Below, piece by piece: positions 1 through 15,836 of a stretch of 24,000 bases of DNA. Below the pieces are notes generated by a model. That model saw only the letters and a list, made by a program, of their open reading frames with translations. It made no database searches and was not told where the DNA came from. Location: NCBI RefSeq assembly GCF_009817885.1, contig NZ_CP041764.1, positions 1,093,542-1,117,541 on the forward strand, written 5' to 3'. Source of the DNA: Serratia rhizosphaerae (GTDB lineage Bacteria > Pseudomonadota > Gammaproteobacteria > Enterobacterales > Enterobacteriaceae). Numbering within the stretch: position 1 is the stretch's first letter; each line of letters starts with the position of its first letter. The translations under genes and the position numbers were made by a program.

Positions 1-112
1 AATAACAGAGGTTGCTATTTCCCCCGGCGCCCCATTCAAATTTTTCCATGCTACAGAAAAGAATATAGCCGCCAATCACCTTATCAGCGTTCTTCATGGT
101 CATTTTTTTCAC
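1..112 (-). CDS. Small double-glycine-leader peptide, paralog 2 (5' part only; ORF still open at the left window edge)
   Basis: The reverse strand reads AAGGAtattacaGTGAAAAAAATGACCATGAAG..., giving an SD 7 nt before a GTG at 112. Translation is MKKMTMKNADKVIGG/YILFCSMEKFEWGAGGNSNLCY... with no stop before position 1. The RBS and first six codons are almost identical in nucleotide sequence to the 508..717 gene. It is absent from the ORF track because it is truncated. Confidence 0.5.
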   Translation of the reverse strand, partial: MKKMTMKNADKVIGGYILFCSMEKFEWGAGGNSNLCY

Positions 113-343
113 TGTAATATCCTTATATGATTACATTGATATATCAAATAAGAAAAACACCAACCCTACAGGGATAAAATATATGGATGGCACTTCCCCT
201 ACATCATTAAGTCTAATCACTAATGCTGAAAGAGTAAATTATTGTCAACGCAAACAGAGAATAACGGGATATAGCTGACTATTTAAATGGAATACTCGCG
301 AGATTCAAAAACGTGATGGCATTGAAGACAAATAAAACATCAG

Positions 344-362
344 GGGGTAAAAATAATACCCC
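344..362 (-). terminator. Terminator-like hairpin downstream of the 508..717 peptide gene
   Basis: The reverse strand reads GGGGTA-ttatttt-TACCCC (6-bp stem, 7-nt loop), followed by a T-rich tail (ctgatgttttatttg). Confidence 0.4.
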
Positions 363-473
363 TCCGGTAGAGGGAGGGAATCAGGTCACATCAACAAGGT
401 GAATCGCCAAGCCGATACCAACCCGCTGTGATATTGCTAAGAATGGCGTTATTGAAGTGAACGAAAGCGGCCA

Positions 474-496
474 GGGTGCGGCGGTCCGCCGCACCC
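474..496 (-). terminator. GC-rich hairpin immediately after the stop codon of the 508..717 peptide gene
   Basis: gggtgcggcgg-t-ccgccgcaccc is a near-perfect palindrome (effective stem about 9 bp). It starts 11 nt after the TAA stop. The trailing T-tract is weak (ccgctttcgtt). Confidence 0.4.
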
Positions 497-507
497 GGTA
501 AAACAGA

Positions 508-717
508 TTATTTTGCAGCTGGAGCCGCGGTGGCAGAGCAGTTGCCCATTGGCACATAGAACATGACTTTCGTCGGCTGACCAAACTTATTGGTGCAGTT
601 TCTGACGGCGGTACAAGCTTCAGCGCCGCCTACCGTGGTTTTCTCAAAGGTGGTCGCTGTACAGTTATAGAAACCGCCGATGATGTTGGAAGATTCCATC
701 ATGGTCATCTTTTTCAT
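508..717 (-). CDS. 69-aa small peptide with a putative 15-aa double-glycine leader and a 54-aa four-Cys core (candidate class II microcin/bacteriocin-like precursor)
   Basis: This is the internal ATG of track ORF 508..780, preceded by AAGGAtaacaaaATG. Sequence: MKKMTMMESSNIIGG/FYNCTATTFEKTTVGGAEACTAVRNCTNKFGQPTKVMFYVPMGNCSATAAPAAK. It has no hydrophobic Sec signal. The core is rich in Gly, Ala and Thr. The flanks are AT-rich and two hairpins lie downstream. Confidence 0.6.
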   Translation of the reverse strand: MKKMTMMESSNIIGGFYNCTATTFEKTTVGGAEACTAVRNCTNKFGQPTKVMFYVPMGNCSATAAPAAK

Positions 718-1118
718 TTTGTTATCCTTAATAATGATATTAGTGTGTTTGCATAAGAAAATATCTTGATTTACTTTCAATAATAACCAAGATAAATATG
801 ACTCTCACGCAAATTAATTATATGGATCGATAAAAAAAAGAGTCAATGTCATTCCACTACCGCCGGCCACAAACAGAAACACCCCCAATTAAAAGCAAGA
901 ATAATCTCAAAAGCATACCCTTTTTATATGCACAAAATAAATGATACATAAAGTTATAAAGCGAAAAGCTTATCGTTTATCCGTCCGCCCCTTTATACCG
1001 AACAATAAAAAATCGGCGACAAGCACTGATACGCCCCACCACCACCTTACGCACAGACTCGTCCTCTCTTCTCAGCTAGTCTGACGGGTGATAACAACCT
1101 GTGATTGAGGAGAAAAAC

Positions 1119-14086: not shown

Positions 14087-14557
14087 TTACTCACGCTCAA
14101 CGTTGACCACCTCTCCGTTATCTTGCAGTAAATAGCGGCCGTCATATGTAATCAATAACGTACGATCATTTTTTATCTGTCTTACGGAAAACACGGCGTT
14201 CTTATCAATACAATTATCCTTGGCTTTCCTGGCATCAAAACACAGCCTGTCATACTTCCCTTCCTCTTTATAGCCGCTGCCAAAATCCCAAAAAGTAATG
14301 GAGAAACGTCCAGAATCAGGAGATGGGTTAGGTATACCATAGTTTTCACTTAACTTACCCTTATTCTCCAACCACCAGTTTATTTTACCTTTATCGGTGA
14401 GCGGAAAATTGGTTACCAAGACGTCGCTGAAGTTATCATTAGTATAAACAGCAGCAATCCCTACAGTCCGTAACGATAAATAGAGTATATATCCGACAAG
14501 TATACAACCGACTAGAAATAATGATGCATAGCGTAAAATGTCACTCCTTACTTTCAT
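14087..14557 (-). CDS. N-terminally membrane-anchored protein, DUF943-like (function unknown)
   Basis: 156 aa from the ATG at 14557, preceded by GGAGAatatt. The longer track ORF reaching 14665 adds an implausible N-terminus. The TM segment is ASLFLVGCILVGYILYLSL. The remainder (VLVTNFPLTDKGKINWWLENK...FWDFGSGYKEEGKYDRLCF) matches my recollection of the enterobacterial DUF943 family. Confidence 0.65.
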   Translation of the reverse strand: MKVRSDILRYASLFLVGCILVGYILYLSLRTVGIAAVYTNDNFSDVLVTNFPLTDKGKINWWLENKGKLSENYGIPNPSPDSGRFSITFWDFGSGYKEEGKYDRLCFDARKAKDNCIDKNAVFSVRQIKNDRTLLITYDGRYLLQDNGEVVNVERE

Positions 14558-14734
14558 AATATTCTCCATGAGCGTCCTAAAATGTATGCTAACACCGAAC
14601 GCCATAGTTAATTTCCTGCGCAACATACAAAGACAATATGGAAGCCAACGCCATAGCATTATCACCCCAAAGATAGGTTAAAGCCTGAGAAGCCGACTTA
14701 CTCACCATCAATGACACAATGAATAATACAATCA

Positions 14735-15136
14735 CTACGGAATATTTTTATCACCATGTTCTTTATTGATAACCTTGCTTTCATTATCAATAGCAAAATC
14801 AGCTTGAATCAATTTTTGCCGCTCTGCGCTGTCATTATCTAAACCATAATAAATCACATACGATTTACCTGGATTAAAATGATAACCAAACATAGGTAAA
14901 CACTGACCATACGCAGGATGAAATGGTGAATCATCAAATAATTTCCTAAATGGCTCATCCATTTCATTATAAATTTGAATCGAGGTAATACGATCGCCTA
15001 ACTTAGCAGGGTATAAGACACACGGTGAATTATCCTTTAGCTTAACATCCGCGTATACCGTTTCCGGCATACGATCGCCAGGCCCCGGACAACCAGAGAT
15101 GAGAAAAACAGAATACAAAACAAAAAACCTTTTCAT
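14735..15136 (-). CDS. Small lipoprotein; candidate periplasmic immunity protein for the upstream metallopeptidase
   Basis: 133 aa. The signal peptide MKRFFVLYSVFLISG/C carries a canonical lipobox (ISGC). The start lies only 3 nt after the stop of 15140..15685. It is a paralog of the frameshifted lipoprotein at 16066..16426. Confidence 0.75.
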   Translation of the reverse strand: MKRFFVLYSVFLISGCPGPGDRMPETVYADVKLKDNSPCVLYPAKLGDRITSIQIYNEMDEPFRKLFDDSPFHPAYGQCLPMFGYHFNPGKSYVIYYGLDNDSAERQKLIQADFAIDNESKVINKEHGDKNIP

Positions 15137-15139
15137 TCG

Positions 15140-15685
15140 TTACTTCCTTCCTGTGACAATTTTTCGATAGATCGTTGGGATAGCCCGGATATCATCATTA
15201 CCGCGGTATCTACCTTGCCTTCCTTGTACCTGAAAATACTTCCACCTGTCTATTCCATATACAATCATCAACCAGTAATCAGCAATGATGGATGACTGCT
15301 GTTCAAGAGAGTAATCGGTCAGTTTACCTTTATCGAGCTTATAGTAATAATTGGCGGCCCAACTGAATAGGCCTCTCACCCTTACCCATTGTCCATGCTG
15401 GTGTTGCCAAACGTGGCCTAACTCATGGATAAAGACATGCTTTCTCTCATCAGAGACAGAGCTTGCTGAAAAATCAGAGGAATATCCTTCTTCCCTGAAC
15501 CAAAGTTCACCATTAGGTGCCATAGCATAATCAGGACTCTGCAAACCAAAGGGAAAGTAGCTATCACAGTGTACCCAAACGCGGCTATAAACAATTCTGT
15601 TTCCAAAAACCTGACGAGCCATCGCTATTTCACCCAACGTCAATCGACGTAACGTCCCTTCCTTTATTTCCGTATTCTGCTCCAT
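15140..15685 (-). CDS. Signal-less HExxH zinc-metallopeptidase-like protein (candidate secreted toxin / T6SS cargo effector)
   Basis: 181 aa from the ATG at 15685, with AAGGA 8 nt upstream. The track ORF starts at 15727. The motif is FIHELGHVWQHQH (HExxHxxxHxH). The N-terminal block LTLGEIAMARQVFGNRIVYSRVWVH...AMAPNGELWF resembles the small 'Vgr-related' / DUF4157-like metallopeptidase domains as I recall them. There is no signal peptide. Confidence 0.78.
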   Translation of the reverse strand: MEQNTEIKEGTLRRLTLGEIAMARQVFGNRIVYSRVWVHCDSYFPFGLQSPDYAMAPNGELWFREEGYSSDFSASSVSDERKHVFIHELGHVWQHQHGQWVRVRGLFSWAANYYYKLDKGKLTDYSLEQQSSIIADYWLMIVYGIDRWKYFQVQGRQGRYRGNDDIRAIPTIYRKIVTGRK

Positions 15686-15836
15686 TCGCGTTATCCTTGT
15701 GACAATTCCAGTGTCTACGGATAACATGGTAACGATTATACAAAAATTTACTACAGAGATTGTTCTTAGCCACTTTAGCTAACATAAAATGCTATCGCTG
15801 ATCCCATCCAGCTCCGTTACTCCCTACAGCATCGCG

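Follow-up and report, generated by a model that had tools for sequence, protein, structure and literature searches.

Orphan DUF4762 double-glycine peptide genes in Serratia rhizosphaerae and a candidate route for their processing and export

At the left edge of a 24,000-nucleotide stretch of the Serratia rhizosphaerae genome (contig NZ_CP041764.1, positions 1,093,542 to 1,117,541 of the forward strand; hereafter, the window), two small genes, P1 and P2, lie in tandem on the minus strand. Both encode peptides with a double-glycine (GG) leader and belong to the Pfam family PF15959 (DUF4762). An initial annotation, made from the sequence alone, had read them as a candidate undescribed class II microcin locus cut by the window edge. 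We conclude that P1 and P2 are probably functional, independently transcribed orphan DUF4762 paralogues that would be leader-cleaved and exported via a peptidase-containing ATP-binding cassette (ABC) transporter (PCAT), encoded in a conserved gene cluster elsewhere in the genome.

Two paralogous precursor genes at the window edge

The open reading frame (ORF) and translation of P1 are exactly as given in the initial annotation, and the product is 100% identical to the NCBI entry 'DUF4762 family protein [Serratia rhizosphaerae]'. The full P2, taken from the same species (L001:10606-10815), has 69 aa and four cysteines, and it is therefore not a long protein with an incidental GG, which dispels an early worry. 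The two products share 38% identity (E = 1e-12 in a single BLASTP comparison). Both N-termini comprise 15 aa, are non-hydrophobic and end in [IV]IGG, and a C-x15-C spacing follows in both (C19/C35 in P1, C20/C36 in P2); the four cysteines of P1 are C19, C35, C41, and C60 in precursor numbering. The predicted core masses are 5.7 kDa for P1 (average mass calculated as 5668.4 Da with two disulfides assumed) and 6.0 kDa for P2 (6040.8 Da for the L001 allele, calculated in the same way). The same ribosome-binding module, TAAGGATA, stands 5-6 nt ahead of the start codon in both genes, and the locus has a GC content of 0.36-0.41 vs 0.60-0.67 in the adjacent UbiD-like gene. Thus, the common start module, the leader-like N-termini, the cysteine spacing, the paralogy and the AT-richness that had been pointed out initially all hold.

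Two hairpins had been called private terminators. The one at 344..362 was found again by a terminator scan, while the one at 474..496 was recovered as a stable fold (471..498; Table 1) that lacks a clean U-tract. The region contains three terminator-like sites vs 0.7 expected. The number of promoter-like sites, one of which lies upstream of P1, is not above that in shuffled sequence. A 9-mer, TTTTCTTAT, is found at -44 from the P1 and P2 starts alike (761..769 and 156..164, respectively, minus strand) and could be a duplication remnant or a common regulatory element. We rejected an operator common to the upstream regions of P1, P2, and P3, the cluster copy described below: what is shared amounts to the TAAGGATA module, at -13 in all three, and the one 9-mer in P1 and P2, which is insufficient for a claim of co-regulation.

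Table 1 Features of the P1/P2 locus in window coordinates
Feature	Position	Strand	Basis or remark
P1 gene, complete DUF4762-family precursor	508..717	minus	ATG at 717; 69 codons; coordinates include the stop codon
P1 leader MKKMTMMESSNIIGG, 15 codons	673..717	minus	predicted cleavage after GG
P1 core, 54 aa, 4 Cys, NKFG motif	511..672	minus	family alignment
P1 ribosome-binding module TAAGGATA(AC)	721..730	minus	sequence
Promoter-like site TTGACT-18-TATAAT upstream of P1, 11/12 sigma-70-like	817..846	minus	consensus match only
GC-rich hairpin directly 3' of P1 stop codon	471..498	minus	-23.4 kcal/mol, z = -2.9
Pair of overlapping hairpins, terminator-like and with T-runs, in the P1-P2 gap	344..379	minus	scan: 379..359 and 362..344
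P2 gene, first 37 codons	1..112	minus	GTG start at 112; cut by left window edge
P2 leader (V/M)KKMTMKNADKVIGG	68..112	minus	ORF translation and family leader set
P2 ribosome-binding module TAAGGATA	117..125	minus	sequence

P1 and P2 are conserved in four lineages, apart from any exporter

Synteny of the tandem pair extends over four lineages, two of S. rhizosphaerae (L001 and L091), one of Serratia sp. FGI94 (L089), and one represented by a further assembly (L090). Among these, the ratio of non-synonymous to synonymous substitution rates (dN/dS; Nei-Gojobori) is 0.08-0.18 for P1 and 0.15-0.27 for P2 at a dS of 0.3-0.8. At the protein level, the P1 leader does not differ among the lineages, with dS at 0.3-0.55 in five of six pairwise comparisons. 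Neither ORF is disrupted in any of the four lineages, both keep their cysteines, GG, and ribosome-binding sites, and the DNA between and around them is poorly conserved and gapped. Conserved coding sequence within poorly conserved DNA argues for function and, judged from these alignments, P1 and P2 are real, functional genes under purifying selection; on ORF conservation and selection, the proposal of the initial annotation thus stands. We also considered that P1 and P2 might be decaying remnants of an old cluster duplication, i.e. unexpressed or non-functional pseudogenes. The AT-rich, poorly conserved surroundings and the GTG start of P2 would agree with this; however, the intact ORFs, a dN/dS of at most 0.27 at dS up to 0.8, and the conserved cysteines, GG, and ribosome-binding sites all speak against decay, and GTG starts are also common in cluster-linked DUF4762 copies. 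We regard this explanation as very unlikely.

As had been observed, the window contains no exporter gene. The orientation of P1 and P2 toward the left edge is the sole point in favor of a self-contained class II microcin locus with exporter, adaptor, and immunity genes just past that edge. In all four lineages, however, the adjoining 10 kb encodes AraC, aldehyde dehydrogenase, LysE, TehB, DUF1615, a thiamine pyrophosphate enzyme, PagP, and DUF2501, and neither an ABC exporter nor an adaptor or membrane fusion protein (MFP) nor a small conserved, immunity-like membrane ORF. Such genes are likewise missing from the 10 kb on the opposite side. A self-contained locus is thereby ruled out for the four lineages examined and hardly credible overall, and the claim of a microcin locus cut by the window edge falls with it: the exporter is encoded on another contig, as described below.

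P1 and P2 belong to the DUF4762 family

P1 scores 26.6 bits against PF15959, for which the gathering threshold is 27, and carries PF15959.11 in precomputed annotation; P2 scores 12.7 bits, far under the threshold, and is recognised only with a broader profile. The peptides are not an undescribed family, as had been supposed, but members of one already named in Pfam and at NCBI, with its function uncharacterised. Word-based single-sequence protein searches returned two matches for P1 and five for P2. With a profile of the P1/P2 orthologues, an exhaustive HMMER search returned 29 representatives, nearly all of 58-83 aa, in whose alignment the GG, K44, G46, and three of the four cysteines do not vary and the remaining cysteine (C60) hardly does. 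A purpose-built family hidden Markov model (HMM) recognised P1 with E = 3e-21, the full P2 with 3e-23, and the P2 fragment in the window with 3.8e-11.

The pooled family set comprises 96 unique members, for example MKKISAAEAANVIGGCCQTC... from Citrobacter koseri and MKKINLSEAANIVGGTFVC... from S. marcescens. The leader follows the pattern MKK[ILM]..x[EK]A..[IV][VI]GG and is 15 aa long in 96 of 96 members. Glycine at -2 and -1, I or V at -4 and -3, and I, L, M, or V at -12 are found in 100%, Ala at -7 in 94%, and Glu at -8 in 59%. On these frequencies, the family leader is a classical double-glycine leader with hydrophobic periodicity. The initial annotation had remarked that E-L is missing at -8/-7, which is half right because the wider family has E-A there. 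The cores are 43-61 aa long and mildly basic, with much Thr, Val, Cys, Lys, and Gly. They contain a [DN]K[FYH]G motif; the number of cysteines is four in 64 of 96 members, otherwise five or six. P1 and P2 both carry the 15-aa leader, the four cysteines, and the [DN]K[FYH]G motif. An AF2 model built on a 26-sequence alignment shows a core with a three-stranded beta-sheet and a low-confidence leader helix.

We note that about one-quarter of the cores have one or two extra cysteines right after the GG (GG-TCKTC, GG-CCQTC, GG-TCKKNC; e.g. L007, L036, L046, L058, and L092). An odd number of cysteines would leave a free thiol near the new N-terminus.

DUF4762 genes are linked to a conserved PCAT operon

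In S. marcescens, a DUF4762 gene stands first in an array on one strand, followed by genes for a DsbA-like protein, a ~315-aa protein, a PCAT with Peptidase_C39, ABC_membrane, and ABC_tran domains, an MFP, a MacB-like ABC protein, an outer-membrane efflux protein (OEP), a ketoacyl synthase (KAS), and an acyl carrier protein (ACP). C. koseri has the same array between unrelated flanking genes. Using the S. marcescens PCAT for a scan of one genome per species, we identified ~55 orthologous loci with 55-100% PCAT identity in at least 12 genera, namely Serratia, Yersinia, Rahnella, Enterobacillus, Pluralibacter, Izhakiella, Ewingella, Pantoea, Buttiauxella, Trabulsiella, Kalamiella, and Enterobacter. 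In all loci whose flank was long enough, the family HMM detected a DUF4762 ORF on the same strand 1.8-2.1 kb upstream of the PCAT gene, and nine cluster genes are conserved in order (tblastn). Clusters outside the S. marcescens group also encode a MaoC-type dehydratase and a short-chain dehydrogenase/reductase (SDR), the latter likely a ketoreductase, which complete a mini fatty-acid synthase.

The export genes are unlike those of the CvaAB-TolC type: the adaptor is MacA-like (297 bits with the MacA model vs 53 bits with the HlyD model) and is paired with a MacB-like pump (725 bits) and a NodT-type outer-membrane factor. The DsbA-like protein, anchored in the membrane by its N-terminus, carries a CHYC motif. 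Of the ~315-aa protein, eight of 13 orthologues give a weak match to Lip_A_acyltrans (best E = 5.4e-5), and its name at NCBI is lysophospholipid or lauroyl/myristoyl acyltransferase; a profile search against PDB sequences returned no relative of it. We note that this protein has the invariant motifs APxHxxSD, FPDxxPDxT, and LWHxHSLxFIN (L092:10001-10948 and orthologues), and that the label 'ABC transporter' on some of its records is a misannotation.

Because the leader and its GG are invariant in 96 members and the precursor genes are linked to a PCAT gene at ~55 loci, there is strong support at the level of sequence for the earlier suggestion that P1 and P2 are double-glycine precursors destined for a C39-peptidase ABC exporter. 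The same data bear on the alternative that the GG is incidental and that P1 and P2 are small cytoplasmic proteins, e.g. metal-binding through their four cysteines, that are not exported. For this speaks that the Pfam and NCBIfam scans matched DUF4762 alone and no bacteriocin-type signal model, and that the exporter is not adjacent. However, the constant leader length and GG, the strict operon linkage not only to a C39-peptidase exporter but also to a periplasmic DsbA-like protein, and a cysteine spacing (C-x15-C-x5-C-x18-C) that is not that of a CxxC-type metal site leave little room for it, and we give it very little credence.

Two observations concern individual clusters. S. fonticola RP0009 (L026, L034, and L036) and GTA-SR07 (L033, L039, and L067) each have three paralogous whole clusters, and every copy has its own, different precursor peptide. 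In S. rubidaea NCTC12971 (L060, LR590463.1, 8600-16700), the genes for the DsbA-like protein, PCAT, MacB-like protein, and OEP are each split into at least two ORFs, which is due to frameshift errors in the assembly or, alternatively, to decay of the cluster in that strain.

The S. rhizosphaerae genome encodes a full cluster

The initial annotation had made its proposal dependent on an exporter somewhere in the genome, and a PCAT is indeed present in the same assembly: in GCA_035786655.1, P1 and P2 lie on contig JALLMA010000015 (L001) and a full 11-gene cluster lies on JALLMA010000012 (L092). Gene 1 of this cluster encodes a DUF4762 peptide, P3 (66 aa, MKKVTLPAAEAVIGG followed by TCKKNC...), with 41% identity to P1 and 37% to P2 over the aligned regions. 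Genes 2-4 encode the DsbA-like protein (225 aa), the acyltransferase (315 aa), and the PCAT (717 aa); genes 5-7 the MacA-like adaptor (384 aa), the MacB-like pump (649 aa), and the OEP (466 aa); and genes 8-11 the KAS (420 aa), the MaoC-type dehydratase (274 aa), the ACP (82 aa), and the SDR (243 aa). From the DsbA-like through the SDR gene, gene ends abut or overlap, as expected if the cluster is one translationally coupled operon. An alignment with PCAT1 (4ry2) spans the entire PCAT, and one of the C39 domain with LahT150 (6mpz) shows that the Q-x4-E-C-G motif (here QSETNECG, with the Cys at position 18) and the H-Y-V-L-L motif are kept; judged by these alignments, the PCAT is intact and looks functional.

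A first reading of the PCAT scan, by which the cluster was possibly absent from S. rhizosphaerae, was overturned by L092. The species is not among the matches of that scan, which has false negatives: cluster-bearing C. koseri, which shares none of the six search peptides, was also missed. In an exact-cluster look-up, the S. rubidaea acyltransferase was found to share its 90%-identity sequence cluster with two S. rhizosphaerae members, and one of these records lies on the 5,098,052-bp chromosome that bears P1. Orphan and cluster genes are also paired in Enterobacillus tribolii (orphan L009 and cluster L045, at the species level) and in a Serratia metagenome-assembled genome (JBKJYW01; orphan L011 and clusters L031, L032, and L059, in a single assembly).

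We note a hairpin, GGATGTGGC...GCCACATCC, with a T-run after the cluster precursor gene and before the DsbA-like gene (L092:9150-9220), and a comparable hairpin after orphan P1. Hairpins 3' of the precursor genes fit the attenuator that is common after structural genes of bacteriocins and of peptides that are made by the ribosome and modified after translation (RiPPs).

A two-step route is proposed for the peptides

With no exporter near P1 and P2 and a full cluster on another contig, we consider the two peptides to be orphan substrates, which are most likely cleaved and exported in trans. Specifically, the PCAT of the cluster would recognise the common leader of P1 and P2 in trans and cut after G15 of the GG. 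Because the PCAT comes without its own type I adaptor, we propose that it would move the core across the inner membrane into the periplasm. There, the membrane-anchored DsbA-like protein, by way of its CHYC motif, would make two disulfides, and the tripartite MacAB-like/NodT pump would expel the folded peptide over the outer membrane. The pump may also protect the producer. MacB-type pumps can give self-protection against peptides (PMC5985334), which could explain the missing immunity gene. From the gene content of the operon, we infer that this two-step route would be unlike the one-step CvaAB-TolC route of classical microcins. That the acyltransferase and the mini fatty-acid-synthase genes might add a lipid to the peptide is speculative.

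Several findings weigh against this scheme or against a microcin-like role. Position -7 of the P1 leader is Ser, as in only three of 96 leaders, and position -12 is Met; moreover, the first core residue is F or Y in P1 and P2 vs Thr in 58% of the family. With these unusual residues, recognition in trans is a plausible proposal. At the usual Asp position of C39 peptidases, the PCAT has Asn ('NP', where LahT150 has 'DP'). The PCAT has no HlyD/CvaA-type partner and the sole adaptor of the operon is MacA-like, so that the exact route is inferred. A small membrane immunity gene is visible neither in the main cluster nor between the precursor and DsbA-like genes, and at the orphan locus no further small conserved ORF, including an immunity-type membrane ORF, was found beside or between P1 and P2 in the four lineages. 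The AF2 model is of moderate confidence (mean pLDDT 65.6, core 75-79), and Foldseek identified no significant relative of it in the PDB (best E = 0.05, TM 0.34-0.42). Finally, the NCBIfam scan, which includes a bacteriocin-type signal model, returned no match, a result that is uninformative for such short motifs. Concerning the peptidase, we note that the C39 Cys and His motifs are kept in this orthologue group and that Asn holds the third position of the catalytic triad in 51 of the 51 PCAT orthologues that match the motif pattern (L092:10970-11400; L012-L067), a papain-like Cys-His-Asn arrangement.

What the exported peptides would do is a separate question. Interbacterial antagonism in the manner of microcins would be the most likely activity, a reading to which we give about an even chance. 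The same processing and export would also serve peptides that are signalling, surface-active, or envelope-associated factors, possibly lipidated, with the MacAB-like pump acting in export only. In line with this are the want of an immunity gene at the orphan locus and in the cluster, the chromosomal and syntenic location, the apparently vertical inheritance of the cluster across many genera, the purifying rather than diversifying selection on the cores, and the presence of fatty-acid-synthase-like genes and an LpxL-like acyltransferase in the same operon. On the other hand, several divergent paralogues per genome, and cores that differ between species while the scaffold stays fixed, are what is typically seen in antagonistic peptides, and pumps of the MacB type can give self-protection (PMC5985334). 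We therefore hold a non-bacteriocin role to be possible but the less probable of the two.

We also considered a wider proposal, which we think improbable as a whole: the DUF4762 peptides, orphans included, would be an unrecognised class of secreted peptides of the Enterobacterales, in which one chromosomal operon would acylate the precursor while it still bears its leader (through the LpxL-like, acyl-ACP-dependent enzyme with its own KAS, dehydratase, ACP, and ketoreductase), cleave and translocate it to the periplasm by the adaptor-less PCAT, staple it with two disulfides by the DsbA-like protein, and eject it by the MacAB/NodT pump with self-immunity, while unlinked orphans would diversify the products.

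Comparison with known peptide systems

P1 and P2 resemble the class IIa microcins (MccV, MccL, MccN, and the expanded set) in being Gram-negative, ribosomal, and smaller than 10 kDa, in their 15-aa double-glycine signal, hydrophobic at positions -4, -7, and -12, in a predicted disulfide-containing, unmodified-looking core, and in the presence of a C39-bearing PCAT in the genome, though unlinked to P1 and P2. Their N-termini also have the length (15-19 aa) and the ending (G-[GAS]) of class II (IIa) microcin signals. Having several unlinked precursor genes per genome is also seen for the microcins of S. marcescens (PMC13101503; PMC12219008). In contrast to class IIa microcins, P1 and P2 have no adjacent immunity gene and, in Pfam and NCBIfam scans and in the portions of paper supplements that were available, no sequence similarity to verified microcins; in particular, no microcin or bacteriocin model of Pfam or NCBIfam matched them. 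Likewise, the DUF4762 operon has a MacA/MacB-like pair with a NodT-type outer-membrane factor rather than an HlyD/CvaA-type adaptor, and it adds a dedicated DsbA-like protein, an LpxL-like acyltransferase, and four fatty-acid-synthase-like genes.

The signal regular expressions of Parker et al. 2025 (Motif 1 and Motif 2, as read here) require [IL] at position 4, where P1 and the P2 of the window have Met and hence do not match. Motif 2 is matched by the P2 allele of L001 and by 69 of 95 family leaders. Because of these matches, Enterobacteriaceae members of DUF4762 may already be among the 1060 unvalidated 'EN' hits of that study, and the multi-Cys, DsbAB-dependent EN82 and EN112 could be relatives of DUF4762 peptides. 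In the searched portions of the supplements of microcin-mining papers, DUF4762 motifs were not found. The searchable literature contains no mention of DUF4762, which has no assigned function in Pfam, and we found no description there of an operon that combines PCAT, MacB, DsbA, and KAS.

The proposed periplasmic passage has a parallel in the heat-stable enterotoxin STII (STb) of E. coli, which crosses the inner membrane by Sec, is oxidised by DsbA, and is then exported by MacAB-TolC (PMC5985334). Like STII, the DUF4762 peptides are small with two predicted disulfides, and their operon encodes a DsbA-type enzyme and a MacAB-type pump. Unlike STII, to which they are unrelated in sequence, their inner-membrane step would rely on a PCAT that cleaves off a GG leader instead of on Sec and signal peptidase, and their pump and oxidoreductase are dedicated and operon-encoded whereas those of STII are housekeeping proteins.

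A second parallel is with multi-precursor RiPPs of the prochlorosin type. For prochlorosins, unlinked precursor genes are served by one set of ProcM and a LahT-type peptidase. The DUF4762 system shares with them a conserved leader, diversified cores, precursor genes away from a single cluster, and a C39 domain related to LahT150. In contrast, the DUF4762 cluster encodes no lanthipeptide or other known RiPP-tailoring enzyme, and its candidate tailoring enzymes are the DsbA-like protein and the LpxL-like acyltransferase only.

These results give DUF4762 a testable role, namely as the substrate of a C39-peptidase exporter. They also define an apparently undescribed cluster of 9-11 genes, in which a PCAT and a MacAB-type pump are combined with a DsbA of its own and with lipid-building genes, in Serratia including S. 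marcescens, many Yersinia species, Rahnella, Pantoea, C. koseri, Trabulsiella, and others. If the peptides are antibacterial, class II microcins would gain a structurally distinct beta-sheet family with two disulfides; if the two-step route is true, Gram-negative double-glycine peptides could pass through the periplasm like the enterotoxin STII. For annotation, we suggest that isolated small ORFs with a DUF4762-type leader be considered together with the exporter encoded elsewhere in the genome.

Other genes of the window and its surroundings

The remaining genes of the window encode a UbiD-like decarboxylase, an MscS-like channel, lacYZI, YkuD, regulators, a tRNA, proBA, and frsA. In a blastn search of window positions 1-1100 against E. 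coli genomes, no match was found. Three consecutive ORFs at 14087..15727 on the minus strand encode DUF943 (192 aa), DUF7480 (133 aa), and a 195-aa product without a Pfam match; in the ~2 kb after them (15.7-17.7 kb), no long ORF could be called with confidence. Relative to L001 and the window, L091 has an extra insert of four genes (TetR, FUSC-type efflux, MFP, and Ytca; L091:3279-7247) between the MscS-like and UbiD-like genes, and the FGI94 lineage has a gene of the metallo-beta-lactamase fold after lacY; thus, the surroundings of the P1/P2 island are variable.

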